From Candidatus Poseidoniales archaeon (GTDB taxonomy: Archaea; Thermoplasmatota; Poseidoniia; Poseidoniales; Poseidoniaceae), in NCBI GenBank assembly GCA_038105035.1, contig JAYOBT010000005.1:12676-76675 (forward strand): a DNA stretch of 64,000 nucleotides, in the 5' to 3' direction. The notes beneath the pieces were generated by a model. The model saw only the letters and a program-made list of their open reading frames with translations. It was not told the origin of the DNA and searched no databases. Each line of letters starts with the position of its first letter. The stretch's first letter is position 1. The translations under genes were made by a program, and so were the position numbers. Shown piece by piece: positions 10,696-50,800 of the stretch.

Positions 10696-10720
10696 TGATG
10701 CAATCGAATGCAACAATCAA

Positions 10721-17782: not shown

Positions 17783-18739
17783 TCAAGATTTCAACATGGT
17801 GACGAGTTTTGCCGTCATCGCATCCAACTGAATCTTCTCGCCACCCCCCTCAACAAGACGATAATCGACCTCTGCCATGATTTCAGTGAGGTCCAACTTG
17901 TCCATTTCTGAAATGAAATCGACGTTGTACAATTCTCGATGAAGTTGCCCAACAAAATCAGTGCCTGCGAGACCGTATTTGTTCAGAAGTTCCTGAAGAC
18001 GTCGTCGAGCAACGTGAAAACCATCGTCTTTGCATGCCATGATGTATTGATGAAGGGCCTCTGGCGGAGCGGTGGCAGACGTTTCGTAGACGATGGATCG
18101 AGTGATGGTTTCGCTGATGGCTGCAGACACCTGCAAAGCGGTGATGGCTCGCCGCAAGTCACCCTGTGCAATTTTTGCTAAGGCTTCCGCAGCATCGTCA
18201 TCGAGGATGACCTTCTCTTCGCTTGCAACGTGCTTGACTTGGTCAAGAACTTCCGAATCTGCAAGTGGACGAAACCGGAACACTGCACAGCGCGATTGGA
18301 TTGGCTCAATAACTTTGGAAGAATAGTTGCACGAAAGGATGAATCGGCACGTCTCAGCGTATTGTTCCATGATTCGACGTAGGGCGCCTTGAGCGTCGTT
18401 TGTCAAAGCATCGGACTCATCGAGAAAAATGATCTTGAATTTCGCATCGCCATAGGGCTGGGTTCGGGCAAACTGTTTGACTTTCGATCGTATTTTATCC
18501 AACCCTCGTTCGTCCGAGGCGTTCATTTCCAGAAGATTGTCACGATAATGCTCGCCAAAGACGTCTTTCGTTAGAGCCATTGCTGCTGTGGTTTTTCCTG
18601 TTCCGGGCGGTCCTGCAAACAGCAGGTGTGGGAATTCTTTGTGTTCTGCATAGACCGATAAACGACTGACAACAGAGGCTTGTCCTCGAATTTCACCTAC
18701 ACTTTGTGGGCGATGTCGTTCGACCCAAAGTTCGCTCAT
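17783..18739 (-). CDS. rfcS: replication factor C small subunit
   Basis: MSELWVERHRPQSVGEIRGQ, Walker A GPPGTGKTT, LDESD and the SRC motif IQSRCAVFRF. Start set at ATG 18739; the track start at 18772 adds 11 non-conserved residues. Confidence 0.9.
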   Translation of the reverse strand: MSELWVERHRPQSVGEIRGQASVVSRLSVYAEHKEFPHLLFAGPPGTGKTTAAMALTKDVFGEHYRDNLLEMNASDERGLDKIRSKVKQFARTQPYGDAKFKIIFLDESDALTNDAQGALRRIMEQYAETCRFILSCNYSSKVIEPIQSRCAVFRFRPLADSEVLDQVKHVASEEKVILDDDAAEALAKIAQGDLRRAITALQVSAAISETITRSIVYETSATAPPEALHQYIMACKDDGFHVARRRLQELLNKYGLAGTDFVGQLHRELYNVDFISEMDKLDLTEIMAEVDYRLVEGGGEKIQLDAMTAKLVTMLKS

Positions 18740-18801
18740 GAACACCAGAGAATGGCGAGCATCTTTCAACATTCGGTTTGAATTTTTTCGAGCCGGAATC
18801 T

Positions 18802-18821
18802 CGCCCCCCTATAGGGGGGCG
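18802..18821. promoter_or_regulatory. perfect 20-bp palindrome with a TATA core in a divergent intergenic region
   Basis: CGCCCCCC-TATA-GGGGGGCG lies between rfcS (start 18739, minus strand) and the giant surface gene (start 18870, plus strand). Confidence 0.4.
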
Positions 18822-18869
18822 TGCGCCGAATCAGTCATAACCTTCCACACCTTAGGTCGAACGAGCGCC

Positions 18870-28037: not shown

Positions 28038-28045
28038 GTGATCAC

Positions 28046-30640: not shown

Positions 30641-32631
30641 CGGTCAGTGATCTCATGGGTGTAGAAGAACATCGAAACTGGGACGATGTTGATTATTCCA
30701 AATTGATGAGTGGGCAAGCATTCCCAAGCAATTTCATGTGGGGTGTAGCTACAGCCTCGCACCAAATTGAGGGTGGAAACTCCAACAATTGGACTCGATT
30801 TGAACCCGGTTCGAAAAGCGGCCAAGAGAGCGGTGATGCCTGCGATCACTGGAACCGCAAAGAGCAAGATGTTCAACTCATCAAAGACTTGAATGTCACG
30901 CACTACAGGTTTTCACTCGAATGGAGCCGTATCGAACCTGAGATGGGTACTTGGAATCAAGATGCCATCGATTGGTACAGCGACCTTGTCGATCAACTTC
31001 TTTACAACGGAATCCAGCCCATGGTCACACTCCATCACTTTACAAATCCACTCTGGTGGGAAGACATGGGCGCGTTTGAAGATGAAGCAAACATACTCTA
31101 TTGGATTCGATTTTGCTCCAAGATGTTTGAAGTGCTAAGTGACCGAGTTGAGTGGTGGTGCACCATCAATGAACCTGCTGTTTATGCTTCAATGGGGTAT
31201 GTATTGGGGGAATTTCCCCCTGGTGAGCGTTCCTTCAAGAAAACACGAGTGGTTTCATTGAACCTGATGCGAGCGCATGCTCGATGCTATCGGACGCTCA
31301 AGTCAATGGAGAATGGAGCGTCAAGAAAGATTGGATTGGTGAAGAACATCAACATCTTTGATGCGTATCGGCGCTGGAATCCATTGCATCGTTTCCAAGC
31401 AAAGCTCTTGGATGGGATGTTCAACCGATGTTGGATTGATGGTCTGAAAACCGGCCGTTTCAAGCCACCCTCAGCATTCAGGAGCGTTTCTATTGATGGC
31501 CTCAAAGGGAGCAGCGATTTCATCGGCGTGAATTACTACACGCATCTACTCACAACACCATTCATGCCGACCAAGGTTGAGATCGACCCACTCATCCGAC
31601 CTTGGGAGGAACGAACAGATTTCCGCTATCCCATGTATGCTGAAGGGTTGAAGCGTGCATTTGAGATGGTCGCCCCATTGAACATACCAATCATCGTGAC
31701 CGAAAACGGGGTTGCTGATGATGATGATGACATGCGCCCCGAGCATGTCCGGAGACATTTGCAAATCACTGCGGAAGCCATTGGCGATGGTCATGATATC
31801 CGGGGATTCTACCATTGGAGTTTGATGGACAATTTCGAATGGGCCGAGGGATATGAACAGTGTTTTGGATTGTACCATGTTGATTTTGAAACCCAACAAC
31901 GAACGCTTCGTGAGAGTGGGAAGTTGTATGCGGGTATTGCTCAATCGCATCGAATGCCACAAGTGGTTATCCTTGCAGGTGGGCTTGGCACCAGACTTGG
32001 TGACTTGACCAAAAACCAACCAAAGTCATTGATTGAAGTCGCAGGTCAACCTATCTTGGCCCATATCCTCGACTGGGTCAAAGAGCAAGGCTGCAATCGT
32101 GTACTCGTTTTAACAGGACATCATGGTGAACAATTCGAAGGGTTCCATTATCCGGGTATCGACATGACCTTTGTCCAAGAACAGGAGCAATTAGGTACTG
32201 GAGGTGCACTTTGGAACGCTCGTGATTACTTGGAAGAGGAATTCATATTGTTGTGGGGTGACGATTACCACCCAATTCAATATGCGCCATTGATTCATCG
32301 CCATCGAGCAGCAAACTCGACGTTGACCATGACCGTGACAACCGAACATCAAGACAAGAACCTGCACTATGCTGATGGTCGATTGGTTGATTATGGTAAG
32401 CATGACGATGTCCCAGAGGAATTCAATGGATACGAAGCAGGAACGTCCATTGTGAAGAAATCGGTGATCGATGAACACGGTAAAGAGGGCAAGTGGTCAT
32501 GGGAAAAGACGGTATATCCAACCATGTCGAACAACATCCATGTCCATCTTGACAACACAAAATTTTGGGACATGGGGACGCCAGAACGCCTCGAACGCTT
32601 AGAGGAATTCTTCAACGAATCCAGGTCGTGA
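30637..32631 (+). CDS. fusion protein: GH1 beta-glycosidase (N-terminal ~440 aa) plus sugar-1-phosphate nucleotidyltransferase (C-terminal ~230 aa)
   Basis: GH1 motifs: FPSNFMWGVATASHQIEGG, acid/base TINEP (about 31167) and nucleophile VTENG (about 31698). From about 31954 the sequence reads MPQVVILAGGLGTRLGDLTKNQPKSLIEVAG...LGTGGAL...WGDD, a nucleotidyltransferase. The ATG at 30637 overlaps the upstream stop (ATGA). Confidence 0.8.
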   Translation: MTVSDLMGVEEHRNWDDVDYSKLMSGQAFPSNFMWGVATASHQIEGGNSNNWTRFEPGSKSGQESGDACDHWNRKEQDVQLIKDLNVTHYRFSLEWSRIEPEMGTWNQDAIDWYSDLVDQLLYNGIQPMVTLHHFTNPLWWEDMGAFEDEANILYWIRFCSKMFEVLSDRVEWWCTINEPAVYASMGYVLGEFPPGERSFKKTRVVSLNLMRAHARCYRTLKSMENGASRKIGLVKNINIFDAYRRWNPLHRFQAKLLDGMFNRCWIDGLKTGRFKPPSAFRSVSIDGLKGSSDFIGVNYYTHLLTTPFMPTKVEIDPLIRPWEERTDFRYPMYAEGLKRAFEMVAPLNIPIIVTENGVADDDDDMRPEHVRRHLQITAEAIGDGHDIRGFYHWSLMDNFEWAEGYEQCFGLYHVDFETQQRTLRESGKLYAGIAQSHRMPQVVILAGGLGTRLGDLTKNQPKSLIEVAGQPILAHILDWVKEQGCNRVLVLTGHHGEQFEGFHYPGIDMTFVQEQEQLGTGGALWNARDYLEEEFILLWGDDYHPIQYAPLIHRHRAANSTLTMTVTTEHQDKNLHYADGRLVDYGKHDDVPEEFNGYEAGTSIVKKSVIDEHGKEGKWSWEKTVYPTMSNNIHVHLDNTKFWDMGTPERLERLEEFFNESRS

Positions 32632-34488: not shown

Positions 34489-35319
34489 ATGGCTGAAGAG
34501 GTCTCTCCAGAAAAGGCGAAGGAAATCGTCGAGATGTTGACAGGAGGCGGTTCAATCGAATCCATCAACACCTCTCTTGCACTTGGGATCTTACCACTGG
34601 TCGAATCCATTGGCGACATGGATCTTTTGCATCGATTGGTCGAACATGCCGAGCAAGTCGCAGAAGATGACATTGAGAAAGGTTGGGCACGGTTCGAGCA
34701 TCTGAAGCGATATACAGGATCCATCGATGATGTTGCAGAATTAGCATTCCATGCTGAATCCTTGCAAAATGGTGCTCCTCTCGCAGCTGCAGTTCTCCAT
34801 CATCACGCACTGATGCTGCTCTCCATCGAGGAGATTGAGTCGGCACAAACCTCCATTCGTCGTTCTCTAACGTTACGAGAATCCATCGAAGATCAGGAAG
34901 GCATTGTTTACGGCTTGGCAGTACTCTCACGCTGTTCGCGACTCAATCAAGATTGGGATTCCGCCATCATCCATGATACCCGCAGGCTTGAATTGGCCAT
35001 ATCCATGCAGAACGATGTCCTCCGCATGGAGGCACTTGCAGATGTTGCTCATGCACAAGCTAGTATCGGTGAACTCGCTACAGCGAGTGAAATGTACCAA
35101 GAAAGTCTTGACTTTGCTAAGCGGCTTGAACATCCCGCTGGTCATCTCGTAGCTAGTTGGGGTCTTGCGGACCTTGCCGAAATTGAGACCAGATACGACG
35201 ATGCCCTGCTGACTTTATCGGATACAATGCACCTGTTCATGCAACTTGGGATCCCTGCCCCGGACCTGCTGAAAAAACGACTCCATGCTCTCACATCACT
35301 CGGTGAAGAAGTCAACTGA
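34489..35319 (+). CDS. helical-repeat (TPR-like) protein, hypothetical
   Basis: Repeated Ala/Leu-rich helix pairs (ALADVAHAQASIGELATASEMYQESLDFAKRLEH...). I did not recognise a catalytic motif. Confidence 0.45.
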   Translation: MAEEVSPEKAKEIVEMLTGGGSIESINTSLALGILPLVESIGDMDLLHRLVEHAEQVAEDDIEKGWARFEHLKRYTGSIDDVAELAFHAESLQNGAPLAAAVLHHHALMLLSIEEIESAQTSIRRSLTLRESIEDQEGIVYGLAVLSRCSRLNQDWDSAIIHDTRRLELAISMQNDVLRMEALADVAHAQASIGELATASEMYQESLDFAKRLEHPAGHLVASWGLADLAEIETRYDDALLTLSDTMHLFMQLGIPAPDLLKKRLHALTSLGEEVN

Positions 35320-35368: not shown

Positions 35369-36601
35369 TTGATGGAACACGACATTTTCTTTTCCATCAG
35401 CCAAACGCCAGACTCGGATGGCCATATTCCGGATGAGCAGACGATGCTTCGAAATTACTTCGAACAACTCGAGTGTGCAGATTCTCTCGGTTTCGGAGTA
35501 GGTTGGATTGCTCAAGCCCATCTCTCAACTGAAACACAAAAATCCAACAGCAAACCAGTTGTACCCCACTGGCAAGGAGAAGTTGGACTCTGCACAGATT
35601 TCCCTCAACTTGCCATGGAATCATTTCGAAGAACCGAGAACATTGAGATTGGTAGCGCTGTCGTTTCGATTCTTGCATCGGGTGGGCCGATTGCACAAGC
35701 GGAGAGAATCGCAAACACCTTGCAACTTCTCGCAGTCGGCAACGATTCCCGCAAACTCCATGTTGGCTTCTCAGCCGGTCGCTTCGAATTCATGGCTCGC
35801 CCATATGGAATTGTTCCACGAACGGCTGTTGAAGAAGCAGCATGGCCAGCATTACGAGGACAAATTTTCCTTGAAGCGAGTGAGGTTTTCCTCCGTTTGC
35901 TGCGAGGCGATGTTGTTTCATCAGATTCCGTTCGCTCGACCATTTTAACCCGTGAGAATTTCAGAAGCGATGAAGATTGGCAGCATGTGCAAGAGGCTCA
36001 CGGTTTCGATGCTGATGCAATCGAAATCGAACGTCGTTACGTGTTTGAAGACATTCGAATCGTTCCAAACACATTCGATCGAAATCAATTGGTGCTCGTA
36101 GCGGGAACCCACGATCCTAAAGCCCAAGTTTTTGTCAACTCCTTCCTCCCAGTCCGGGTGTTCAACCTGTCCATTACACAACCGGAAGTTATCGAAGCGA
36201 CACACGAGCGCATGCGTTCTTGCTTCCATCCAGATGGAGGAGAGTGGAAGCGCTCAGATATGCCACGAACCAGTTTCGTATTTGTGAACGATGAACCGGG
36301 CATGACGCCTCAAGAGCAACGGGAGGCGGCTCATCGAGAAGCAGATGAAGCATTGGGTGCCTATTGGAACGCTCTCGAAGGGACCATCGACCCCAACAAG
36401 GTTCAGAACGCAGCTCAAAACGCATTGATTGGGAACGTCGAAGATGTCGCCAAACAACTCGTCGAACGCTTCCATCCAGAGGACCGTGTCATGGCGTGGT
36501 TCGATTTCTTCAATCATGATAGCGCTCGAGTTTGCCGTAACATGCGAGCTTACATGGAAAAGGTCGCTCCACGTGTCGAGGAACTTCTCAAGGGTGATTG
36601 A
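35369..36601 (+). CDS. luciferase-like (LLM-class) flavin-dependent oxidoreductase, tentative
   Basis: The N-terminal pattern ...YFEQLECADSLGFGVGWIAQAHLS..., then IEIGSAVVSIL...PIAQAERIANTLQLL...GFSAGR, resembles the LLM TIM-barrel family. Confidence 0.5.
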   Translation: MMEHDIFFSISQTPDSDGHIPDEQTMLRNYFEQLECADSLGFGVGWIAQAHLSTETQKSNSKPVVPHWQGEVGLCTDFPQLAMESFRRTENIEIGSAVVSILASGGPIAQAERIANTLQLLAVGNDSRKLHVGFSAGRFEFMARPYGIVPRTAVEEAAWPALRGQIFLEASEVFLRLLRGDVVSSDSVRSTILTRENFRSDEDWQHVQEAHGFDADAIEIERRYVFEDIRIVPNTFDRNQLVLVAGTHDPKAQVFVNSFLPVRVFNLSITQPEVIEATHERMRSCFHPDGGEWKRSDMPRTSFVFVNDEPGMTPQEQREAAHREADEALGAYWNALEGTIDPNKVQNAAQNALIGNVEDVAKQLVERFHPEDRVMAWFDFFNHDSARVCRNMRAYMEKVAPRVEELLKGD

Positions 36602-36603
36602 AC

Positions 36604-37725
36604 ATGAAAATCAATCATCACAATCATTCCGCAGTTAAACCTGGTCGGCCGGGTAGCGAATTGTTTCCAAATTCTCCTCTTGGTGAACAGGTAGAGGGCA
36701 TCCCAACAGGTCGGGACGTAGCGTGGGAGCCTTTGGTTGACTACCGAAGGAACGGTGTTTCTGAAACAACCATCCATGGCGCAGTTGCTTGGGCGCATGG
36801 TGATGAAGTCATACATTCCTTTGGAGGAAACGTTCTCTGCTATGGAAGATCGATGATGAAACCGTTCATGCTCAAGGCATTTGTGAATGAATTAGCCGAT
36901 CTTTCATGGGAGCAGAAGGCTATTTCGGTGGCCAGCCACAACGGTGATACAGAACACGTTGCTGCCGCACAGTCGCTCCTTTCACAATCTGAATGGCCCC
37001 TCATGTTGACGCCATTGGATGTACCGTTGATTCAATTCGGACGTCAGGTTCGGCGTCCTCGGCGGTGGTATCACACATGCTCAGGTGAACACGCAGCAAT
37101 TCTTCGTGGATGCAGGGAAAAAGGTTGGAATCGTGCAGGTTACACATTGCCAAGTCACCAAGTGTTCGATGCATACATGTCCGAAATTCGGCGCTTCCTT
37201 GGCGAGGATTGGACGCCCTTACGAATTGCAAAAGATGGATGTGGGTTGCCAACCGTTTCAAACACGGTTGCTGAATTGGCTCAGATTTATGCTGGCTTGG
37301 TTCGCGATAAGGATGAGGACTGGATTTGGGAATCCATGGTTCGTCACCCAGACCTTGTTGGTGGATTCAATCGTCTCGATTCAACAATTCTCAAAGCGGG
37401 TGAAGGGACTGTCATAGCGAAGGAAGGGGCAGATGGATTACTCGGCCTTGCAATTGAACACCCTGATTATCCGAAAGGCCTCGGCATCGTTGTGAAGATT
37501 GCTCATGGATGGAATGCACAAGCAACATGGTACGTTGCGAGAGCCATCCTTGGTGTGCTTGGGATTGATCTGAGAAATCCATACCCACTCCATCGTCAGA
37601 AAGCATTCATTGTACCTGGGATTGTTCCAGAACGATATCTTGGTGTTCTCGAGACCATTCCTACATGGGACGAATGGGACCCTGATCAAGACCGTTGGAT
37701 GTACGATGCGGAGTTGGACGCATGA
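36604..37725 (+). CDS. asparaginase-II-family (PF06089-like) protein
   Basis: GRSMMKPFMLKAF, VASHNGDTEHV, CSGEHAAIL, AKDGCGLP, AKEGADGL and VKIAHGW match the conserved blocks of that family as I recall them. ATG 36604 lies 2 nt after the upstream TGA. Confidence 0.7.
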   Translation: MKINHHNHSAVKPGRPGSELFPNSPLGEQVEGIPTGRDVAWEPLVDYRRNGVSETTIHGAVAWAHGDEVIHSFGGNVLCYGRSMMKPFMLKAFVNELADLSWEQKAISVASHNGDTEHVAAAQSLLSQSEWPLMLTPLDVPLIQFGRQVRRPRRWYHTCSGEHAAILRGCREKGWNRAGYTLPSHQVFDAYMSEIRRFLGEDWTPLRIAKDGCGLPTVSNTVAELAQIYAGLVRDKDEDWIWESMVRHPDLVGGFNRLDSTILKAGEGTVIAKEGADGLLGLAIEHPDYPKGLGIVVKIAHGWNAQATWYVARAILGVLGIDLRNPYPLHRQKAFIVPGIVPERYLGVLETIPTWDEWDPDQDRWMYDAELDA

Positions 37726-39173
37726 ATGCGTTGAACTTCATCGATGGAATCTTTGTCAATGCCGTTGATGGGGAAACGCTTCCAAATGTGAACCCTGCAA
37801 CTGGGGATGAGATTGGAACAATCGCTCGCTCCAATCAGGACGATGTCGATTTGGCGGTTCAAGCCGCATCCCGAGCCCGCAAGGATTGGGCTGCACTCTC
37901 CATGCTCGAGCGTGCAGATTGGCTCGACCGTATGGCAGATGGTCTTGAGCAGCGCAAGGAGGAGATTGCACAGCGTGAATCAAGAGATACTGGTAAGCCA
38001 CTTGCGCTTGCTCGACGAGTAGATGCGCAACGTTCGATCGATAATTTTCGATTCTTTGCAGATTTCGCTCGACAACAAAAGCCAGAAGTGTTCGAAATGT
38101 CGGATGCAACCAACGTTGTTCATCGCAATCCAATCGGTGTGGTTGGACTGATTACGCCTTGGAATCTTCCGCTGTATTTGTTGAGTTGGAAAGTTGCTCC
38201 CGCGTTGCTGATGGGCAACACCATCGTTGCGAAACCGAGCGAAATGACGCCACTTACAGCAGCATTGATGTGCGAAGTGGCTTCAGATATCGGTCTTCCT
38301 TCAGGTGTCATCAACGTTGTTCATGGCTATGGGCCAGAGGTGGGACAAGCCATTCTTGAGCACGCCTCAATCGGTGCGATTTCGTTTACAGGGGGAACAG
38401 CAACAGGCCGACATGTTGCTGCAACTGCAGCTCCAATGTTCAAGAAACTCTCTTTGGAATTGGGTGGCAAAAACGCAACCATCGTGCTCGAAGATGCGGA
38501 TTTAGATGTGGCTGTTGAGGGTGCAGTTCGAGCTGGTTTCACAAACGGCGGGCAGGTTTGTCTCTGTGGTTCTCGAATACTTGTTCACAGATCGATTGCA
38601 GATGAATTCACTCGTCGCCTTGTCGACTCGGTTGCTTCAATGATTTGCGGGCCACCTGAGGACCCATCAACGCAAATTGGGGCGCTAATCAGTCTCGATC
38701 ATCTCCAGAAAGTGGAATCGTACATTGAACTTGGAGTCGAGGAGGGTGGAACCATATTGACAGGTGGTACTCGAGAGATGACAGGACCAGTCACAACAGC
38801 TGAGGCCGGGGCTTTCTTGCGACCAACCATTATCGATGGGCTTGAACATACTTCGCGAACGTCGACAGAGGAGATTTTTGGACCCGTTGTTACCATCCAT
38901 CGGTTTGATTCCGATAAAGAAGCCATCGAAATGGCCAATTCAACGGAATATGGGCTTGCAGGCTCTGTATGGTCAAAAGACGTCGAGCGAGCACATGCGC
39001 TCGCTAGGCAAATCGAGACAGGAATCATCTGGGTCAATACGTGGTTGCATCGTGATCTGAGAACGCCATTTGGTGGCGTCAAGAATTCAGGTGTTGGTCG
39101 AGAAGGTGGCGATTGGAGCCTCGGATTTTTCTCTGAGCCGCTCAATGTTTGCATCAAACATGACCAAGAATGA
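37722..39173 (+). CDS. NAD-dependent aldehyde dehydrogenase, 2-hydroxy-/2-aminomuconic-semialdehyde dehydrogenase-like
   Basis: LNFIDGIFVNAVDGETLPNVNPATGDEIG, RDTGKPLALARRVDAQRSIDNFRFFADF, ELGGKNA, GGQVCLCGSR, EEIFGPV. ATG 37722 overlaps the upstream TGA (ATGA). Confidence 0.8.
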   Translation: MNALNFIDGIFVNAVDGETLPNVNPATGDEIGTIARSNQDDVDLAVQAASRARKDWAALSMLERADWLDRMADGLEQRKEEIAQRESRDTGKPLALARRVDAQRSIDNFRFFADFARQQKPEVFEMSDATNVVHRNPIGVVGLITPWNLPLYLLSWKVAPALLMGNTIVAKPSEMTPLTAALMCEVASDIGLPSGVINVVHGYGPEVGQAILEHASIGAISFTGGTATGRHVAATAAPMFKKLSLELGGKNATIVLEDADLDVAVEGAVRAGFTNGGQVCLCGSRILVHRSIADEFTRRLVDSVASMICGPPEDPSTQIGALISLDHLQKVESYIELGVEEGGTILTGGTREMTGPVTTAEAGAFLRPTIIDGLEHTSRTSTEEIFGPVVTIHRFDSDKEAIEMANSTEYGLAGSVWSKDVERAHALARQIETGIIWVNTWLHRDLRTPFGGVKNSGVGREGGDWSLGFFSEPLNVCIKHDQE

Positions 39174-39222
39174 CGGCGAGCCTTTGAAATGTTGAATTCA
39201 ATCGGAAGCATGAGGCAGAACG

Positions 39223-40044
39223 ATGTCGGTTCACAGGAAAGCAACGAAAGTTACCACGCATACGCTTCAGGAAATGAAGCGGGCCAAAGAACCGATTACG
39301 ATGTTGACGGCGTACGATTACTCCCTTGCCCGTCTGGTTGATGCAGCAGGTGTTGACGTTATCCTCGTCGGCGATTCTGCTTCGAACGTCATGGCAGGTC
39401 AAGTGACAACCGTTCCTATGACACTCGACCACATGATCTACCATGCTCAGTGCGTCCAGCGTGCTGTTGATCGAGCACTGATTGTCGTTGACATGCCGTT
39501 TGGAACCTACCAAGGAAATTCCCGGCAGGCTCTTGAAAGCGCTATCCGTATCATGAAAGAAGCGGAGGGCCATGCTGTCAAACTCGAGGGAGGTTCAGAG
39601 ATTGTTGAATCCATTGAACGAATCTTAACCGCAGGAATCCCTGTTATGGGCCATCTCGGACTCACACCTCAAAGCATCTACAAGTTTGGAACGTACACCG
39701 TTCGTGCCAAAGAAAACGAAGAGGCGGAGAAGTTGATTGAGGATGCAAAACTTCTCGAGGAAGCGGGTTGCTTTGCCATCGTTCTCGAAAAAATTCCAAA
39801 GGAACTTGCTCAACGCGTTCAAAGCGAGTTGAACATTCCAGTAATCGGTATCGGAGCCGGTCCTCACTGCGATGGGCAAGTCCTCGTTCTTCACGATCTT
39901 CTAGGGATTACAATGGACTTCTCACCACGATTCCTTCGCCGCTATCTCAATCTTGCTGAAGAAATTGATGGTGCCATTCGTTCCTATTGCGAAGATGTAC
40001 GCTCAGGAGACTTCCCGAATGAATCCGAGTCGTACACGTCCTAG
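39223..40044 (+). CDS. panB: 3-methyl-2-oxobutanoate hydroxymethyltransferase
   Basis: [38 protein letters not shown] and VKLEGG are conserved PanB blocks. Confidence 0.9.
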
Positions 40045-40550
40045 AAATAGATGAATGCGAGTACACTGCCGCCAAAGGCACCAACGTTGACGGCCATGCC
40101 GTGCCAAAGCCCATATCTGAACGGTGGGAACTCAAATTGAAGCCAAAAGGAACTGATGAACAACCAAGCAATTGCAGGTAGAAATCCAGCAAGATAGACC
40201 GATGAGGATCCGAACATCCAAACCATGGAAAGGCAACATGCTGTGACTGCGAAACCCATAGCATACTCACCTGCACGGCTCATTTCCATACCAATGAGTA
40301 GTCTGTAAATTAGTGGTGAAACAACGAGGTAGATGGCGAACGCGCCATGCACAGGATTTGGAACGAATGTATCGATACGAGGCATCACCGTGAGTTGCCA
40401 AATTGCACCAAGGACCATGCCAATCAGCAATGGAGCCATCATATGGCGAAGCATATCTGAGAAGATTTCGCTTCCCGTAACCGCTTCATCATGAGCGACA
40501 TCTGCCGGCAAATCATCGGATGTTGTAACAACATCATCTGCCTCCGACAT
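40041..40550 (-). CDS. membrane protein (hypothetical)
   Basis: 169 aa with an acidic N-terminus and about five hydrophobic helices. I did not recognise a family. Confidence 0.45.
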
Positions 40551-40607
40551 GCTGTGGGCTTAGCCCCTTCTCGTTTGAGGTTTAGCCTTCCGTTGCGATG
40601 CATCCAT

Positions 40608-41528
40608 ATGCGTCCAATGCTTCGTCGAACCATGTCCAAGGGTTCGATTGTTGCGGGCTGTCTTGCACCGCATCCACCTCATCTTGTGTACGCAGAAAAT
40701 CCTCCGCAGAATGAACCAACCTCTGAGGGAGGTTGGGAACAACTACGGTGGGGATACGAGAGGCTGCGTGAATCGCTTTCCAAGATCGATCACGATGTAT
40801 TGGTTATCCTTTCGCCACATTGGCAGACGTATGTGGGGACACATTTCCTAGGTCTGCCTCATTTTGAGGGGCTCTCGGTCGACCCTATTTTCCCCAACCT
40901 CTTCCGTTATTCGTACAACCTTGACATCGATGTCGACTTGAGCAAAGCCATCCATGACAAAGCAGCGGATGCAGGTCTCGCTGTAAAAATGATGGAAAAC
41001 CCAGATTTCCGTGTCGACTATGGGACAATCACAACAGGACACATGGTCAATCCATCCTTTGACAAACCTCTTGTTGTCATTTCATCGAATCGTTCTCGAC
41101 ATTATTACTCGGTCGAGGTCATGCAAGAGATGATGATGGAACTTGGTCGCGTCACACGCGATGCCATTCTCGAAAGCGGCAAGAAGGCCGTTGTACTTGC
41201 ATCAAATTCACTTTCACATCGTCATTTTACAACAGAATCCGATGTGCCTGAGGACATGAGCAAAGAGCACATAACGAGTCACGCGATGCACCTTTGGGAC
41301 ATGCGAATCATCGAATATATGCGAACCGGACAAGCACAGCGAATCATCGATGAAATGCCAGAATTCACTGAACAAGCGATAGCTGAGTCCGATGGAGGTG
41401 GCTTAACATGGCTTCTCAGTACCCTGACTGTACCTACGTATCCTGCAATTCTTCATGGATATGGAACAATCATTGGAACGGGGAATGCCATCGTAGAGTG
41501 GCCCTGTTATGCCCATGAGGAGGTCTGA
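40608..41528 (+). CDS. LigB-family (class III) extradiol ring-cleavage dioxygenase, catalytic-type subunit
   Basis: GCLAPHPPHLV, ILSPHWQ and SLSHRHF match the LigB His positions. Start set at ATG 40608 (40632 is also possible) because the track start at 40491 overlaps the divergent gene. Confidence 0.75.
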   Translation: MRPMLRRTMSKGSIVAGCLAPHPPHLVYAENPPQNEPTSEGGWEQLRWGYERLRESLSKIDHDVLVILSPHWQTYVGTHFLGLPHFEGLSVDPIFPNLFRYSYNLDIDVDLSKAIHDKAADAGLAVKMMENPDFRVDYGTITTGHMVNPSFDKPLVVISSNRSRHYYSVEVMQEMMMELGRVTRDAILESGKKAVVLASNSLSHRHFTTESDVPEDMSKEHITSHAMHLWDMRIIEYMRTGQAQRIIDEMPEFTEQAIAESDGGGLTWLLSTLTVPTYPAILHGYGTIIGTGNAIVEWPCYAHEEV

Positions 41529-41530
41529 TT

Positions 41531-42928
41531 TTGACCAACCCAATTCTAGCCTCGTACGTGGTTCCTGTTCACCCACACCCTCTCCTCGTTCCTGAACAAA
41601 ACGAAGGATGGCAAAGGCTACGGGACGCTTTTGACGAAGCACGTCAACAGATTTCAGACAGTGATGCAGATTTGATCATCATCTATTCCACAACATGGCC
41701 GAGCATCATTGGACACCAGATTCAAGCTGATCCGAACCCTACCTGGACGTTGGTCGATCAAGATTTTCACGACCTTGGATCAATGGACTATTCGTTCCGA
41801 ATCGATTCTGAATTTGCTGAAGCATGGAATACGGCAAATCATGCAAGAGGTCTCCAAAGCAGGACTGTTGCGTACAACGGATTCCCCATCGACGTCGGTT
41901 CTGTTGTCGCTCTGAAACTCCTCAATCCAGACAATGCCATTCCAGCAGTCATCGTCTCTTCCAACGTTTATGCCAATCGTGCTGAAACCACGGTCCTTGC
42001 AAAATCGTGTCTTGATGTTCTCAAGTCAACAGGAAAGAAAGCGGTTGCAGTTACTGCAATGTCAATGTCCAATCGGATGTTCACAGAATTCATCGACGCT
42101 GCTGATGATAAAATTCACTCACTCAAAGACGATGAATGGAATCGGAAGGTGCTGGAGTTTCTTGAAGAAGGACGTCTCGAGGATGTTGCACAACTCTCTC
42201 GCACCATCCATCAGCAAATTCGTGTGCAAAAGGTCGTCACCTTCAAACCGATGTGGTGGCTATCCGCTATGAACGATAATCGAAACGATTTGACCGGTCG
42301 AGTCCTTGCCTATGAGGCACTGCACGGTGCCGGTGGAGCTGTCGTCCATCTTGACCCAATGTCAAACGGGATGGGGGACAAGGAGTACGACGAGGACGAT
42401 GTTGAGGTATATCACGGAGAACGTAACGTTCTCGATGCAGAGGGTGACGACAATATTCCTGAATCTGAACCAGTCGAAGACAACGGCCCAGCATTGTGGG
42501 ACCCTGCCCAAGGAAAGGATGCTGTGAATACTGATTCTGCGCCAAAACCTGTTGGTTTGTATCCTCATGCACGACGGGTTGGTGACTTGTTGTATCTCTC
42601 AGGCGTCGGTCCTCGTCAACCAGGTACAAATGCCATTCCGGGTGGACCGATTCGAGATGCGAATGGGAATTCGCTCGATTATGATATCAAAGCTCAAACA
42701 AGGGCTGTTGTCGAAAACATCGCTCGCATCCTTGAAGAGGCTGGTTCTTCGATGGAAAAGGTCGTCGATGTGACATCGTTCCTCGTAGACATGGATCGAG
42801 ATTTTGCGGGTTACAACGAGGTTTGGGCAGAGACGCTCGGCCATTACGGTCCGACACGAACGACGCTTGCGATTCGTGCATTACCAACACCAATCGCCGT
42901 TGAGATGAAGGTTATCGCAAAAATCTAG
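41531..42928 (+). CDS. fusion: His-depleted LigB-like domain (AmnA-like, probably non-catalytic) plus a RidA/YjgF-type deaminase domain
   Basis: TTG start with GAGGAGG 7 nt upstream. The N-domain is paralogous to the upstream gene, but SPHW is replaced by STTW and SHRHF by SNRMF. After an acidic linker, the C-domain reads PKPVGLYPHARRVGDLLYLSGVGP...PTRTTLAIRALPTPIAVEMKVIA (RidA fold). Confidence 0.75.
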   Translation: MTNPILASYVVPVHPHPLLVPEQNEGWQRLRDAFDEARQQISDSDADLIIIYSTTWPSIIGHQIQADPNPTWTLVDQDFHDLGSMDYSFRIDSEFAEAWNTANHARGLQSRTVAYNGFPIDVGSVVALKLLNPDNAIPAVIVSSNVYANRAETTVLAKSCLDVLKSTGKKAVAVTAMSMSNRMFTEFIDAADDKIHSLKDDEWNRKVLEFLEEGRLEDVAQLSRTIHQQIRVQKVVTFKPMWWLSAMNDNRNDLTGRVLAYEALHGAGGAVVHLDPMSNGMGDKEYDEDDVEVYHGERNVLDAEGDDNIPESEPVEDNGPALWDPAQGKDAVNTDSAPKPVGLYPHARRVGDLLYLSGVGPRQPGTNAIPGGPIRDANGNSLDYDIKAQTRAVVENIARILEEAGSSMEKVVDVTSFLVDMDRDFAGYNEVWAETLGHYGPTRTTLAIRALPTPIAVEMKVIAKI

Positions 42929-43036: not shown

Positions 43037-44437
43037 ATGCCAATTTCAAAACTCGATTCTATCGTTGAACAAGGGACTGAAACCATCAAGAAGACCTTGA
43101 AGCGAAGCGTTGGTCTTGCAGGTGTTGTCATTATCTCGCTCTCCGCCATGCTTCCGGGCATTTTCGTGACACCAACCTTCGCTGCCGAGATCATGGGAGC
43201 AGGAATCTGGCTCGCATTCATCGTCGCAGCAGCTGTCGTTCTTCCTGCAGCCATCTCGAAAGCTGAATTGGCATCAGGCATGCCATCGAGTGGTGGTTCC
43301 TACGTCTACCTTGAGCGAACTTATGGGCCAATGATCGGAACCATCAGTGGTCTCGGACTATGGGCTTCGTTTTTGCTTAAATCAGGTTTTGCACTCATTG
43401 GATTCTCTGCTTACTTCATCGCAGTGACCACCTATTTCGATATCGACATGGAAATGCTCGTCCTCTCTATGAGCGCTCTGGTTCTTATTACGGTCGTCAA
43501 CATTCTCGGTGTCAAGAAGGTCAAAGCGATCCAAACACCAGTCTTGCTCGTCACGCTCGCTATGCTTCTCATCACCTGTGCTGCTGCTTTCTTTTCTGCT
43601 GATTTTGATGGCTCGCGACCGTTCAAGGCAGCGTTTGATACCGATTTATGGACACTTGCTGAAACATCAGCCTTCGTGTTTGTTGCCTATGCCGGTGTTA
43701 CCAAGGTCGCAGCGATTGGAGGCGAAGTCAAAGATCCAGAAAAGAATCTACCCGCAGGTATGTTGCTTTCACTACTCATCGCCACGGTATTGTACGCACT
43801 TATTGCCTATCTTATGATGGCAGCCATCCCAGGTACGTGGTGGGAGGGTGACGATGGGAAAATCGTTGAGAACCCCATCTTTGTGTTTGCCGAGCAAGTT
43901 GCAGGTACCGAATTTGGTATATTTGCAGCTATTATCTCTGTTCTCGCTATGATTTCAATGGCGCTTGCAGGTATTCTAGCGTCTTCTCGATTTTTGTTCG
44001 CCATGGGGCAAGACAAGCTTCTCCCTCCAGCACTTGAGCGTGTTCATGAGAAATACGAGACGCCACATTGGCCGATTATCGTCACAGGTGTGGCGATGGG
44101 TCTTGCTATCTTTTTCGTCCCTCTCAAGGATGTCGTAAAGTTAGCATCTGGATTCAAAATCATGATTTTCATCATGATCAACACCTGTGTCATCATTCTT
44201 CGACAAACGAGCGATCGTTATGATTGGAATCCGTCGTACAAAGGAGCATTGTATCCGTTCATGCAATTGTGGGGTATTCTTGCTGGTCTGTTCTTGATTT
44301 ACTTCATTGGCGATAAAGCATTCATCGGTGCATCAGCAGCCATTGCTGCCGGCCTTGTGACCTACTTCCTTTATGGAAAGAAGCATGCAGAGATATCGAA
44401 GACACCTTTCCAATCGTTCATCAAGCGTGACGATTAG
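43037..44437 (+). CDS. APC-superfamily amino acid/polyamine permease
   Basis: About 12 TM helices, with AELASGMPSSGGSYVYLERTYGP, a typical APC N-terminal block. Confidence 0.85.
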   Translation: MPISKLDSIVEQGTETIKKTLKRSVGLAGVVIISLSAMLPGIFVTPTFAAEIMGAGIWLAFIVAAAVVLPAAISKAELASGMPSSGGSYVYLERTYGPMIGTISGLGLWASFLLKSGFALIGFSAYFIAVTTYFDIDMEMLVLSMSALVLITVVNILGVKKVKAIQTPVLLVTLAMLLITCAAAFFSADFDGSRPFKAAFDTDLWTLAETSAFVFVAYAGVTKVAAIGGEVKDPEKNLPAGMLLSLLIATVLYALIAYLMMAAIPGTWWEGDDGKIVENPIFVFAEQVAGTEFGIFAAIISVLAMISMALAGILASSRFLFAMGQDKLLPPALERVHEKYETPHWPIIVTGVAMGLAIFFVPLKDVVKLASGFKIMIFIMINTCVIILRQTSDRYDWNPSYKGALYPFMQLWGILAGLFLIYFIGDKAFIGASAAIAAGLVTYFLYGKKHAEISKTPFQSFIKRDD

Positions 44438-44680: not shown

Positions 44681-45514
44681 TCAGATGCTGCGAAGACGAC
44701 CGCCATCCACAGGTAACGAGACACCGCGAATCGCTCCTGCTGCAGGTGAAGCGAGGAAGGCGATGACGGATGCAGTCTCCAATGGATCAATCAGTCGCTC
44801 AATAGGAACTTGACTCATCCAACCATCATGGATGGCTTCGACCGATTGTCCAGTACGCTCATGGATGGATTGTGCCAAACTTCCCAATCGCTCCGTATTG
44901 GTAAAACCAGGTAAGACATTGTTGATGGTGATCGAAGGATGGAGTTCGCGTGATAGGGACTTTGCCCAGGATGCCATAGCCCCACGGAGTGTATTCGATA
45001 CGCCAAGGTTTGGAATCGGTTCACGAACACTGGTTGAGATGATTTGGATGATACGACCATAATTTGCGCCGATCATTCCGGGTGTGACCAATTTCACCAA
45101 CGTATGTGCTGCGTGAAGGTGTCGCGTAAACGGCTGAGCAAGTTCCTCAACGCTTGCATTCAACAACGGACCTCCAGGAGGTCCGCCTGCATTGTTGATG
45201 AGAATGTGAATCGGTCCGTCATCGAGAATTGGTTGAACACATCCAGCGATGCCTTCCGTATCTTCCAAGTCCATGACCAATGTTTGGTGATGACCTTTTC
45301 CGAGTTCTGTAAGTTCGTCGAGTAAGGAATTGAGTTGCTCCTCATTCCGAGATGCAAGGATGACGTTCGCACCAGCTTTCGCCATGATACGGGCGGTTGC
45401 TGCACCAATCCCCCGACTTGCACCACAAATAAGCGCTGTTTTTCCTTCAAGTGCATTGTTCTGAAGTACGGCTTGGTCTCCTAAGAGGTCCATGTGTGAC
45501 CCTACAGGTGCCAT
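44681..45514 (-). CDS. short-chain dehydrogenase/reductase (SDR)
   Basis: GKTALICGASRGIGAATARIMAKAGANVILASR (TGxxxGIG), NNAG and the active-site region; 277 aa. Alternative start at 45496. Confidence 0.85.
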   Translation of the reverse strand: MAPVGSHMDLLGDQAVLQNNALEGKTALICGASRGIGAATARIMAKAGANVILASRNEEQLNSLLDELTELGKGHHQTLVMDLEDTEGIAGCVQPILDDGPIHILINNAGGPPGGPLLNASVEELAQPFTRHLHAAHTLVKLVTPGMIGANYGRIIQIISTSVREPIPNLGVSNTLRGAMASWAKSLSRELHPSITINNVLPGFTNTERLGSLAQSIHERTGQSVEAIHDGWMSQVPIERLIDPLETASVIAFLASPAAGAIRGVSLPVDGGRLRSI

Positions 45515-47855: not shown

Positions 47856-50800
47856 ATGTCGCAACTCTCCATTCGTGCGGTCGTTTTGGTTGGAATGATG
47901 CTGCTCGCAAGCGCATCGCCTCTGTCTCAGTTGTCCCAAGCGGATCCTGAAATCGAGTTACAGGTCGACATGAGCCACATGATTTTGATACCAGGGGAGT
48001 CAGTCAATCTTTCGTTAACCATTGAGAACAACGGCTCATCGATCGAAACCTATGACGTTGAAACTTCACTGGATGGGCTCTCTTCGTTGTGGATGGCTAC
48101 GCCAACAGCATCCTCTGTGAGCAATGTTCTTCCAACCTACAACGCCACGACGACAATCGTCGTTGAACTCGCTGAATCGGCAACGCCGAGCGACAACGGA
48201 AAGTTCACGATTTTCGTGAACGAAAGCGATGGGATTTCGTCCTCCTCAATTGACGTCTATGTTAGCGTCGCTGTCGTCTACAATCCCCATTTGGATGCGA
48301 CAGGAGTCGGGGACCAAGGTTTGTTGGCGATTGAACCTGGGCAATCGGTTGACCTTTCCATTCCAGTAAGCAATTTTGGCAGTGTTACGGATTCTTACCT
48401 TCTCGGTGTTGGTGAGGAGCCTGATCTCAGCGGATGGTGGGCCAACTATTCCTCCAGTGGTTCTTCGAACACAACAACATCTCCGCCTTCATGGTCGACC
48501 TCGGTCAGTGATGTCCTCACTTTTGGCAACTCCTACACGTCTCAGAACGGACTTTCATTCATGCTCGAGGAACTCCTGCGAAGTGCGGCTAGTCCAAGCA
48601 ATACCTCGGATTTTACAAGCGGTGGTTGGACGATTGCCGATCACTGGGATGACGTAAACACCTCGGGTAGTGCCCAAAACCTCTCACTCGCATCCAGTGT
48701 TTGGGACACTGTAATCGTTCATGATCAATCACAAATTCCAGGGTTCTTCCGTACCAATTCCGATTGGCTAGCGAGCAAGAACGGCAGTGTTCACCTTGCT
48801 GAACGGATTGATTCAGAAGGTGCGGCGATGATGCTGATGATGACATGGGGGCGTCGAAATGGCGATGCTCAAAATCCGATTCTCTATTCGAACTTCACGG
48901 TGATGCAAGATCGAATCGAACAAGGCTACATCGACTATCGAGACAACATTTCACTCGAAACCTCTGCTGAGATTTACATCGCTCCAGTCGGTCTTGCATT
49001 CAAACACATTCACGATTCAATCGAAGCTTCAGGAGGCAATCCCTTGTCACCAACATCGACGTTCTATGGTCTCTATTCCACCGATGGAAGCCACCCTTCA
49101 ACATCTGGCTCCTACTTGGCAGCATGTGTTTTGTTCGCAGCCCTCACAGGTGATTCGCCCGTTGGCTTGACCGACAATACGACCATGGATGCAACGCTTC
49201 GTCTGACACTTCAGCAGACTGCAGCAGAAGTTGTGTTCAACGGATCTTCCGAGTACGCCTATCCCTGGGAATCAACCGGTGCCATTCAAGCCATGAGCCA
49301 ACATTCTACGTTCCCCGCTGGGTGGGAAGTTCGATGGTTGGATGATCAAATCGAGAATCTATCTGCCAATGGCCAAGAGACCGCCACTCTTCGAATTTCT
49401 ATTCCTTCTGATGCGAGTCCTGGAGCGACTGGTGTTCGCTTGTATGCAGGTTCCTTGTTTGGAAATCTGACCACTTCCACGCTCATGGTCGTTGATGTGC
49501 AGGCCGATTACGATTTGCAAGTCAATTTCCTCAATGCAGACGATGCGTTCTTGCCCGGCGAACAGACCAACTCCTCTGTTCGATTAACCAACACTGGTAC
49601 AACCGACGCTTCCTATGAATACACCTTGACCGTGCTTTCTGGACCGTGCACTGCTGCTCTTCTCACGTATGCTTCCTCCATCAACATGGGTGCAAATGAG
49701 GATCTTGGGTTCAGCGTCGATATCGGAACTACAGCCAACGTAGGCGATGTCTGTTCACTTCGGCTGACCTCGACACTTGCTTCAGATGCGTCTGTATCGT
49801 TTGTCCGCGATTTCTCGTTTGAGGTCGACCGTGACATCAATTTCACGCTTCAAGGTCCGAACGGGGCTGTTGTCATGGACCCAGAAACGGAAACCATGTT
49901 GGAGGTTCGTGTTTTCAATACTGGAAGTGAAACGGAAACGTTCTCGTTGCAAATCAACAGTGATGCAGCGTCACCTGTCTCGCTCATGCTCGAGAGCGCT
50001 TCAAGTCTCTCTGTCGCTGCCGATTCTTCCGCTGTATGGACGTTGAAAGCAGTCGCTTCAGAGGGTTCATTGGGTCTTCTTGAACGCGTTGTAACGGTTA
50101 CGCATGATTCGATCATCAGCCAAAATCTGGCCTTGCAATTCGATGTTCAGGAACAAGCAAGTCTGAACCTCCGAGGTCCGTTGGATGGTCGAATTGTTGT
50201 CCAATCAGGAGAAGAAGCATCCGTCATGCTCACCATTGAAAACGATGGTACTTCGAACATTACGCTCGACACGTTCACCATCACTGGATTGCCTGGAGGA
50301 GTGAACGCCGTTCTACCAGAGGTAGATGGTTACCTCCTCGAGGCGGGGACGTCCCACAACGTTTCATTCAACGTTTCAGCCTCTGCTGCAACGAGCGCCC
50401 GCACGGATTCGCTCTCGCTTCAATTGCTCTCAGATTCGACCAGCGCAGTCCTATCGATTGAGTTGCAAGTTGTTGACCGAACGCTCGCACAACTGAGCCC
50501 AAACACCAATCAGGTCATCGCAGGACCGTCGGTTGCAACCAATGTCACCATTGAGGTAACCAACATCGGAACGCTTCAGGACACCTTCCTTTTGTCGATT
50601 GGCGCCGGTGAAACATCAAATTATTTTGAACTCTCATTGTCCCAGACCTCGGTCAATCTCGGCATAGGTCAATCCGAAACAGTGATTCTAAGCGTCCGAG
50701 AAACTTCTCAGGGAGCAAGTTCCAGTGGCTTACCAATCAATGTTGTTGCTACTTCAACACTCGATTCGGCTTCGACGGATGTCGCCCTCATCACACTTCT

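Follow-up and report, generated by a model that had tools for sequence, protein, structure and literature searches.

Few microbes of the surface ocean are as abundant as the archaea of Marine Group II (MG-II); these archaea are uncultured, and their known diet consists of proteins, lipids and polysaccharides. Could they also open nitrogen-bearing aromatic rings? The question is raised by a 64,000-nt stretch of DNA from a Poseidoniaceae (MG-II) archaeon (hereafter the window, in which coordinates are given), where an aldehyde dehydrogenase (ALDH), a LigB-superfamily protein and a LigB paralog fused to a RidA/YjgF domain are encoded near one another. The initial annotation of this DNA had taken the three for an aminophenol or meta-cleavage-like module, and the listing of open reading frames (ORFs) and the family scans agree with it on these genes and their places. 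In our assessment, the locus encodes, with a probability of roughly 0.7, the upper three steps of a modified meta-cleavage pathway of the 2-aminophenol type. This reading builds on homology, the conservation of catalytic residues, a gene fusion and the conservation of an operon. Genes were identified from the ORF listing, from Pfam and NCBIfam scans, and from searches against solved structures (PDB).

The predicted dioxygenase, dehydrogenase and deaminase

The first LigB gene can be assigned unambiguously, on its sequence, to the catalytic AmnB-type subunit of the extradiol 2-aminophenol 1,6-dioxygenase family. Its PDB matches are beta subunits of 2-aminophenol 1,6-dioxygenases, namely 8ihg_A (E 3.7e-111, 56% identity), 3vsg_B (E 4.9e-107, 54%) and 7txy_B (E 3.5e-91, 49%), and the next LigB relative in the same search is HpaD (8iq8) at E 2.5e-06. 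In a joint alignment, H14, H63, H196 and E252 fall on the conserved His/His/His/Glu set of the three solved beta subunits, and this set is likewise kept in all 17 of 17 partner AmnB ORFs from unrelated contigs. By comparison with the CnbCaCb structure, we take the four residues to be the two His and one Glu that bind iron, plus a second-shell catalytic His/base. The likely start of the gene is at 40632 rather than at 40608, as first proposed, because the alignment to the solved AmnB chains begins at MSKGS; the locus itself was given correctly.

The second LigB paralog is an AmnA-type alpha chain. Its best PDB matches are 3vsg_A, a CnbCa-type alpha chain to which it is 31% identical (E 8.5e-39), 7txy_A (E 6e-37) and 8ihg_B (E 7e-33). 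At the four positions of the beta-subunit His/His/His/Glu set it carries V, T, N and Q, as the solved alpha subunits also do, and the four residues are lost in 37 of the 37 fused homologs examined. The LigB His motifs, earlier described as intact, are thus complete in the first paralog and replaced in the second. That the pair is AmnB/AmnA-like, as had been suggested, is borne out by these matches (E 3.7e-111 and 8.5e-39, against 2.5e-06 for HpaD). Two other assignments were considered and rejected: a DOPA-dioxygenase or HpaD-type enzyme, on E 2.5e-06 versus about 1e-111 for the AmnB type, and a Memo-type LigB protein, since both paralogs match only PF02900 (LigB), with no Memo-family match at E <= 0.01.

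The alpha chain here is not the free-standing protein of about 270 aa known from characterised systems; a 55-residue linker joins it to a RidA-family domain, and this AmnA::RidA fusion is kept in Poseidoniales and in many bacteria. The linker contains 18 Asp/Glu versus 3 Lys/Arg, and its length differs among homologs. An AF2 model of the fusion (from a 23-sequence alignment of close homologs; overall pLDDT 55.9), in which the linker has a pLDDT of 26-31, gives weak support to its being disordered.

The ALDH contains RDTGKPLALARRVDAQRSIDNFRFFADF and matches the Pfam family Aldedh at E 1.2e-170. Its top seven PDB matches are all 2-aminomuconate 6-semialdehyde dehydrogenases (443-481 bits, compared with about 380 for betaine aldehyde dehydrogenases), the best being 4u3w and 4i1w at E ~1e-143 (best 3e-143); the best NCBIfam model is TIGR03216, 2-hydroxymuconic semialdehyde dehydrogenase, at 566 bits. 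GQVCLC, ELGGKN, the R of RSIDNFR and the R of RDLRTPFGG match the same residues in 4u3w and 4npi. Going by the P. fluorescens enzyme, these presumably provide Cys and Glu for catalysis and two Arg to hold the carboxylate of the substrate. The protein had been placed in the 2-hydroxy/2-aminomuconic semialdehyde dehydrogenase group, and both its best matches and the retention of Cys, Glu and both Arg agree with that placement.

For the RidA domain, a deaminase role had been put forward, and the best solved relative is indeed a 2-aminomuconate deaminase, 6izh of Pseudomonas sp. AP-3 (93 bits, E 1.7e-24; generic RidA PH0854, 80 bits). The domain shares the extended loop of 6izh with 3 gap positions, where the generic PH0854 needs a 12-residue gap; this loop, between strand 3 and helix 1, is Lp2 of the AP-3 deaminase (PMC6742747). 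It also keeps the active-site Arg, with GPTRTT aligned to GPARTT of 6izh, and Arg117 is among the residues conserved in the family (PMC6742747).

Other architectures were found among representatives of a 50% clustering: some proteins are ALDH::RidA fusions, and one is ALDH::3xRidA. Against their counterparts in the window, the ALDH parts reach 51-56% identity and the RidA parts 49-61%. One RidA subfamily is thus tethered either to the enzyme acting two steps before it or to the one acting immediately before it, which is expected if RidA acts on 2-aminomuconate. JGI automatic annotation already names some of these proteins 2-aminomuconate deaminase (a fusion included) or AmnB, so the homology is already visible in databases.

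Three further kinds of relative were observed. P0122, from the transcriptome of the marine protist Diplonema japonicum (EukProt), is a protein of 430 aa with three tandem RidA domains, 49-57% identical to the window RidA; it could be contamination, prey, or a transfer. P0197, P0220 and P0224 (metagenome, 682-1034 aa) combine in one chain an AmnA-like LigB domain and a permease domain of the ABC branched-chain-amino-acid type, one of them with an alpha/beta-hydrolase as well; such a membrane-anchored AmnA paralog was unexpected. Finally, in eight high-GC loci (L098, L103, L107, L117, L125, L126, L134 and L139), an AmnA::RidA gene with a degenerate alpha part occurs with no AmnB, ALDH or luciferase-like gene detected within a flank of up to 8 kb; some of these have a KDPG/KHG-aldolase gene before the fusion and some a Cyclase-family gene after it. 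For such solitary fusions, either the catalytic partner must lie elsewhere or the fusion must have another role.

The operon in Poseidoniales and beyond

The features of the locus are collected in Table 1. Besides the ALDH and dioxygenase genes, it holds a gene for an oxidoreductase of the luciferase-like (LLM) fold, an asparaginase-like gene and, on the other strand, a short-chain dehydrogenase/reductase (SDR) gene. The LLM, asparaginase-like and ALDH genes are joined by 4-base overlaps at 36598-36601 and 37722-37725, the ATG of the ALDH gene lying inside the end of the asparaginase-like gene, and by this arrangement the ALDH is, as far as sequence can tell, translationally coupled to the two upstream genes. 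The fusion gene begins 2 bases past the amnB stop. The most likely start of the luciferase-like gene is the ATG at 35372.

Table 1. Features of the ring-cleavage locus and its flanks, with positions in the window
Feature	Position	Strand	Basis
LLM-fold (luciferase-like) oxidoreductase, ~409 aa	35372..36601	+	AF2 model/Foldseek, weak sequence matches
Class-3 (Rhizobium etli type) asparaginase-II-like amidohydrolase, 375 aa	36598..37725	+	PF06089
ALDH, 2-aminomuconate/2-hydroxymuconate-6-semialdehyde dehydrogenase-like (AmnC-like), 483 aa	37722..39173	+	PDB, TIGR03216
panB (ketopantoate hydroxymethyltransferase)	39223..40044	+	Pfam E 1.2e-116, TIGR00222 E 8.6e-102
Small hydrophobic protein, 169 aa, divergent from amnB	40041..40550	-	no Pfam/NCBIfam match
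AmnB-type beta subunit (LigB superfamily), 298 aa	40632..41528	+	PDB matches, conserved residues
Fusion protein AmnA::RidA, 465 aa	41531..42928	+	PF02900 E 4.4e-11, PF01042 E 3.4e-25
AmnA-type non-catalytic alpha domain, residues 1-275 of fusion	41531..42355	+	PDB matches
Acidic linker, residues 276-330 of fusion	42356..42520	+	composition
RidA-family domain, residues 331-465 plus stop, predicted 2-aminomuconate deaminase	42521..42928	+	PF01042, 6izh
APC-family amino-acid permease	43037..44437	+	PF13520 E 1e-36
SDR	44681..45514	-	PF13561 and PF00106 matches

How widely is this arrangement kept? Relatives of the fusion protein were collected from one genome per GTDB species, giving at least 560 stretches, and the Poseidoniales counts given here are from the best 80. 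Close homologs of the fusion protein number in the thousands, and the named ones come from Poseidoniales or 'Euryarchaeota' metagenome-assembled genomes. The best 80 stretches (75-96% identity) bear the names Poseidoniales, Poseidoniaceae, Poseidonia or broader archaeal names, and include the original MG-II assembly CM001443.1, in line with the planktonic euryarchaeal host supposed in the initial annotation. The sole exception is a 4.3-kb contig (CALDQY010000115.1) binned as 'uncultured Rhodobiaceae bacterium'; the AmnB, fusion and permease encoded on it are 95-99% identical to those of the window, and it almost certainly comes from a Poseidoniaceae genome and was mis-binned. At the nearest locus, identity is 96% and gene order is collinear across the whole region. 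Wherever at least 7 kb lies upstream of the fusion gene, the AmnB, ALDH, asparaginase-like and LLM-like genes are present in the same order (57 of 57 Poseidoniales loci).

The operon also occurs outside this order. P0123, a fusion protein 41% identical to that of the window, is encoded on a 103-kb contig (L081) that we consider bacterial because it carries general secretion protein C and CdsA-type genes. Six co-directional genes follow one another there with nothing between them: SDR, LLM-like, asparaginase-like, ALDH, AmnB and AmnA::RidA. A metagenome scan seeded on P0123 gave 80 further loci from soil and sea, spanning 34-71% GC, and the gene order comes back in contigs across this range. 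Their organisms are inferred from neighbour genes and GC, and ORF calling in the high-GC loci is crude; bacterial hosts are probable, because some of these contigs exceed 1 Mb and because genes for an ECF sigma factor, GGDEF/EAL proteins and Ser/Thr kinases occur in loci of the high-GC group. Within the most distant group, AmnB lies upstream of the fusion in 13 of the 18 loci with enough flank, and these 13 all have the ALDH and the asparaginase-like gene, 12 of them also the LLM-like gene. The fusion and the operon are thus not limited to archaea.

A low-GC marine group (L144, L146, L148, L154, L159), whose AspRS is 71-72% identical to that of the window, is probably Marine Group IIb. Its gene order is AspRS-SDR-LLM-AsnII-ALDH-(small gene)-AmnB-AmnA::RidA-permease-panB.

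The initial annotation noted that panB and a divergent membrane-protein gene interrupt the module. Both are present in the window, but they are insertions or rearrangements specific to the Poseidoniaceae lineage: the upstream half of the operon (up to the ALDH) and its downstream half (AmnB and the fusion) are contiguous in L081, L092, L099 and L138. panB is an interrupting housekeeping gene outside the pathway. In L081 and the soil loci it does not occur at this place, and it lies downstream of the permease in L144, L146, L148 and L159; its position in the window is Poseidoniaceae-specific, as the low-GC marine group has it after the permease. The 169-aa hydrophobic ORF, which matches no Pfam or NCBIfam family, keeps its position in most Poseidoniaceae loci and is weakly conserved (26-87% identity). 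In another marine lineage, the gene that splits the two halves encodes a UvrD-type (UvrD/RNase T) helicase. That the halves stay adjacent despite differing insertions argues for functional coupling.

The synteny counts across loci lead us to reject chance juxtaposition. Further neighbours were set aside as lineage synteny, namely the Lon N-terminal-domain protein and the UvrD/RNase T helicase and, in soil lineages, the glycosyltransferase, ECF sigma factor, HEAT-repeat, Wzy, GGDEF/EAL and kinase genes. The Lon N-terminal substrate-binding-domain protein lies between the ALDH gene and panB in many Poseidoniales (e.g., 6855-7628 in L032) and is absent from the window. The components first named are thus all present, but the module is larger than had been thought: the LLM-like and asparaginase-like genes belong to it, so that it extends upstream to 35372, and the SDR gene probably belongs to it as well.

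The LLM-like protein, whose gene stands first or second in the operon wherever it is conserved, is a divergent LLM-fold oxidoreductase, an assignment that comes from its modelled structure. Its sequence matches are weak (Pfam Bac_luciferase E 0.0035; PDB 8k74 E 5e-4). The top Foldseek matches of its AF2 model (pLDDT 77.8, pTM 0.80) in the PDB are all LLM-family TIM barrels at 12-18% identity (2i7g, E 4e-14), and the matches include 8k74, RslO1, FMN monooxygenases, bacterial luciferases, F420-dependent Mer and RutA.

The asparaginase-like protein matches PF06089 at E 2.9e-48, and its best PDB match is the R. etli L-asparaginase II 7os3 (E 2.5e-16). It is the best conserved protein of the operon, with 58-87% identity across lineages compared with 40-60% for the others. 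The S-x-x-K motif and both Cys are retained. In the CSGKH motif, most operon-linked orthologs have Glu where the Lys would stand, and the bacterial operons L081 and L092 keep the Lys. By the residue roles of the R. etli asparaginase we take this Lys to be a zinc ligand, in which case the change to Glu would suggest an altered metal site or specificity.

The SDR is 39% identical to the SDR that heads the L081 operon and 52-63% identical to the operon-heading SDRs of L138, L141, L144, L147, L148, L159 and L163. In many Poseidoniales loci an SDR gene lies upstream on the operon strand. Subject to the uncertain orthology among these SDRs, the window gene is the probable displaced first gene of the ancestral operon.

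Directly 3' of the fusion gene, the genes differ between lineages. The permease occupies this place in 66 of the 72 Poseidoniales loci and in the low-GC marine group, and not in bacterial loci; it is a candidate importer. In the distant and intermediate loci the place is taken by a Cyclase-family gene (PF04199; 24 of 40 and 7 of 11, respectively), which is found neither in the window nor in the 80 Poseidoniales loci. This is the family of kynurenine formamidase and isatin hydrolase. In marine loci L136, L145, L147 and L163 (e.g., 10030-10794 in L163), the Cyclase-family gene is followed by a conserved 254-aa protein with no Pfam match, which may be a further pathway component.

Elsewhere in the window are archaeal-type genes, namely those for replication factor C, an archaeal LonB, GatD, the PolD small subunit and an archaeal A24 peptidase domain. 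A TPR protein (34489-35319, +) between the SDR position and the LLM gene is a Poseidoniales-specific insertion. A 3099-aa ORF (18738-28037, +) is followed by an 874-aa ORF (28016-30640) with a faint bacterial Ig-like signal, and a separate 919-aa ORF (10667-13426) has Big_9 and cadherin-like domains; the three look like giant surface or adhesin-like proteins. Other large ORFs on the plus strand are one of 669 aa (30622-32631), an unusual fusion in which a nucleotidyl-transferase domain is added at the C-terminus to a domain of glycoside hydrolase family 1 (E 9.5e-91); one of 1328 aa (47856-51842) with NPCBM-associated and zinc-ribbon signals only; and one of 1162 aa (52748-56236) without any Pfam match.

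The predicted route and its rivals

What reactions would these proteins carry out? As a first step, AmnB and the degenerate AmnA-like domain would form an Fe(II) extradiol dioxygenase that cleaves an ortho-aminophenol, the predicted substrate, to a 2-aminomuconate-6-semialdehyde. The ALDH would then oxidise this unstable aldehyde with NAD+ to 2-aminomuconate, and the RidA domain would hydrolyse the enamine to 2-oxohex-3-enedioate (4-oxalocrotonate) and ammonia. To judge from the fusion, tethering the deaminase may keep the enzymes for two unstable intermediates together; elsewhere it is tethered to the ALDH instead. With a two-fold AmnAB linked to a three-fold RidA, a complex of higher order would be expected.

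Which ring compound is used, how the subunits assemble, what the three additional enzymes do and where the product goes can only be inferred from the locus. Going only by operon conservation, the LLM-fold enzyme, the Ser-Lys amidohydrolase and the SDR may convert some natural aromatic compound containing nitrogen to the aminophenol, possible candidates being an aminophenol that is N-acylated or bears an amide and a compound derived from tryptophan or kynurenine; alternatively, they might process the C6 product. The amidohydrolase, together with the formamidase-family gene of bacterial loci, suggests an acylated or amide nitrogen in the substrate, which would yield a second ammonia or an unmasked amine. 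A wider proposal can be made tentatively, as a possibility that falls well short of the core assignment: the conserved operon (SDR, LLM, AsnII-like, ALDH, AmnB, AmnA::RidA), with the bacterial Cyclase-family gene or the MG-II permease, might be a widespread catabolic route for a natural N-rich aromatic, e.g., a tryptophan-derived or N-acylated ortho-aminophenol, in which the three extra enzymes form the upper pathway and two nitrogens are released as ammonia.

Several points weigh against the 2-aminophenol-type reading. The distance of the archaeal AmnB to any characterised AmnB is as large as the distances among these (58% identity between the proteobacterial and actinobacterial enzymes), so that it may represent a sister clade with a shifted substrate. 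The Micromonospora rosaria enzyme 7TXY, 49% identical to the window AmnB, favours the reading in that it experimentally prefers 2-aminophenol, but even for its system the natural feedstock outside polluted sites is an open question (PMC10470539). The ALDH score of 566 bits is below the TIGR03216 equivalog cut-off of 693.25. The RidA domain is 43% identical to 6izh and 41% to a generic archaeal RidA, which is nearly equal and compares a single validated deaminase, and generic human RIDA does not accelerate 2-aminomuconate deamination (bioRxiv 10.64898/2026.06.05.730449). For these last two reasons the predicted 2-aminomuconate deaminase step is the least secure of the four assignments, and the placement of the domain in the specialised deaminase clade is only partly secured.

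The remaining point against concerns the lower pathway. The initial annotation had named 4-oxalocrotonate decarboxylase, a hydratase and an aldolase as downstream genes to look for. A Pfam scan of nearly all non-nested window ORFs of at least 140 aa, with the 3099-aa ORF left out, found no 4-oxalocrotonate decarboxylase, 2-oxopent-4-enoate hydratase, 4-hydroxy-2-oxovalerate aldolase or acylating acetaldehyde dehydrogenase in the 64 kb. Nor were lower meta-cleavage genes found in L032, around L081-L084, or among the recurrent annotated neighbour families. The pathway as seen stops short of central metabolism.

The main rival makes the module the lower half of a catabolic route of tryptophan/kynurenine type, in which the AmnAB-like enzyme would cleave 3-hydroxyanthranilate or 3-hydroxykynurenine instead of free 2-aminophenol, the ALDH and RidA domain would play the parts they have in the kynurenine pathway of bacteria and fungi, the amidohydrolase or the Cyclase would serve as arylformamidase, and the permease would import an amino-acid-like substrate. 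The Cyclase-family gene that follows the fusion in so many distant and intermediate loci fits this view, as does the amino-acid permease in the same place in Poseidoniales; in L083 some 4 kb separate the fusion from a fragment of tryptophan 2,3-dioxygenase, and the best solved relatives of the ALDH were deposited as 2-aminomuconate 6-semialdehyde dehydrogenases. Yet among the Pfam-scanned ORFs of the window there is no tryptophan 2,3-dioxygenase, arylformamidase, kynurenine monooxygenase, kynureninase, cupin 3-hydroxyanthranilate dioxygenase or ACMS decarboxylase, and the Cyclase gene is missing from every Poseidoniales locus compared. Cleavage of 3-hydroxyanthranilate would moreover give a carboxylated semialdehyde requiring a decarboxylase, and none was seen. 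It also counts against this route that characterised AmnAB enzymes are not known to use 3-hydroxyanthranilate. We regard it as unlikely on balance.

A good deal less probable is that the LLM, asparaginase-like, ALDH and SDR genes merely adjoin amnBA, or that the set is biosynthetic and makes, e.g., picolinate or another pyridine from the semialdehyde. In its favour are the insertions that split the halves in Poseidoniaceae and in the lineage with the UvrD-type helicase, the loci in which AmnB-AmnA::RidA-Cyclase stands with the other genes not nearby, and the spontaneous cyclisation of 2-aminomuconate semialdehyde to picolinate (PMC10470539). The halves are nevertheless adjacent across lineages of 34-71% GC, and without interruption in the four loci named above. 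The ALDH lies in the upstream half, yet it is needed between two activities of the downstream half; the ALDH::RidA fusions link the halves; and the ALDH and deaminase would draw flux away from picolinate.

Slimmest of all are the chances of an ordinary meta-cleavage of catechol-type substrates with the RidA domain a general enamine/imine deaminase fused by happenstance: AmnAB and the semialdehyde dehydrogenases do take catechol-derived substrates to some extent (PMC10470539), the best NCBIfam model of the ALDH is the 2-hydroxymuconic one and the RidA domain is nearly equidistant from generic RidA, but AmnB is closest to aminophenol-specific enzymes with its next LigB relative far behind, AmnAB is inhibited by the catechol product (PMC10470539), no tautomerase match occurs among the scanned ORFs (the scan took in ORFs below 140 aa only within 35-46 kb, so a small 4-oxalocrotonate tautomerase could be missed), and the keeping of a RidA::alpha fusion in archaea and bacteria, with RidA::ALDH elsewhere, makes a pathway role hard to avoid.

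Known systems and what the locus may mean

By its core, the locus belongs to the known Amn/Cnb type of modified meta-cleavage. The nearest comparison is with the amn cluster by which Pseudomonas sp. AP-3 and Burkholderia xenovorans LB400 degrade 2-aminophenol, given as amnRJBACDFEHG in PMC3790839; the name of its deaminase varies, being AmnE in PMC6742747 and AmnD in PMC10470539. Like the window, these clusters have an AmnB (the 8ihg_A relative at 56% identity), a degenerate AmnA, a semialdehyde dehydrogenase and a RidA-family deaminase, with the same three predicted reactions leading to 2-oxohex-3-enedioate and ammonia. Unlike them, the window has AmnA and the deaminase in one polypeptide with an acidic linker, is missing the decarboxylase, hydratase, aldolase and acylating dehydrogenase from the locus, and adds the LLM-fold oxidoreductase, asparaginase-II-like amidohydrolase and SDR in a conserved operon, in an archaeal host.

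The 2-amino-5-chlorophenol 1,6-dioxygenase CnbCaCb of Comamonas (PDB 3VSG-3VSJ) is likewise a LigB alpha/beta pair with the same His/His/His/Glu set, and its alpha subunit shows the same losses as the window alpha domain, with YST.W replacing SPHW. In contrast to the window, its alpha subunit is free-standing and it serves a chloronitrobenzene pollutant pathway. That pathway uses a deaminase of a different family.

The ARO bacterial-microcompartment locus of Actinobacteria (M. rosaria, 7TXY; PMC10470539) resembles the window in having a 2-aminophenol meta-cleavage set in unpolluted habitats. Both appear to handle unstable intermediates by physical organisation: the ARO enzymes lie in a protein shell, whereas the window has a covalent alpha::deaminase fusion, no shell genes and other accessory enzymes.

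The kynurenine pathway opens the ring with a cupin-type 3-hydroxyanthranilate dioxygenase, after which a decarboxylase acts. Its lower part in bacteria and fungi shares the ALDH and RidA-type deaminase chemistry with the window (bioRxiv 10.64898/2026.06.05.730449), which differs in having a LigB-type AmnAB pair, the cupin dioxygenase and decarboxylase not being found. An analogy of enzyme logic only may be drawn with the Rut pyrimidine pathway, which also brings together an oxygenase of the LLM fold, an amidohydrolase, a deaminase of the RidA family and a reductase and releases two nitrogens as ammonia. By sequence the locus is no member of the Rut type. Unlike Rut, the window has an amidohydrolase of another family and an aromatic ring-cleavage dioxygenase, and RutC scores far below other RidA matches.

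The departures from the Amn/Cnb type are therefore the alpha::deaminase fusion, a lower pathway that is not co-encoded, three uncharacterised constant partner enzymes, and the standing of the whole as a conserved MG-II trait. Such a pathway had been thought not to be an established trait of planktonic euryarchaea, and open-access text (supplementary KEGG tables being outside the scope) yielded no description of it for MG-II, no paper on amn-type genes in this group and none on the six-gene operon.

The alpha::deaminase and ALDH::deaminase fusions are natural examples of enzyme tethering around very unstable intermediates, and the gene set is clonable and assayable. The operon of soil bacteria bears on the natural feedstock of actinobacterial 2-aminophenol systems outside polluted sites. 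The main relevance is to marine carbon and nitrogen cycling, as a conserved, oxygen-dependent module of ring cleavage and deamination suggests that marine dissolved organic matter holds a class of substrates not yet recognised. If the tentative proposal of a route for an N-rich aromatic is true, the natural feedstock of 2-aminophenol pathways in unpolluted habitats would be identified, and dissolved organic nitrogen of a class yet to be mapped would have a major sink in MG-II.

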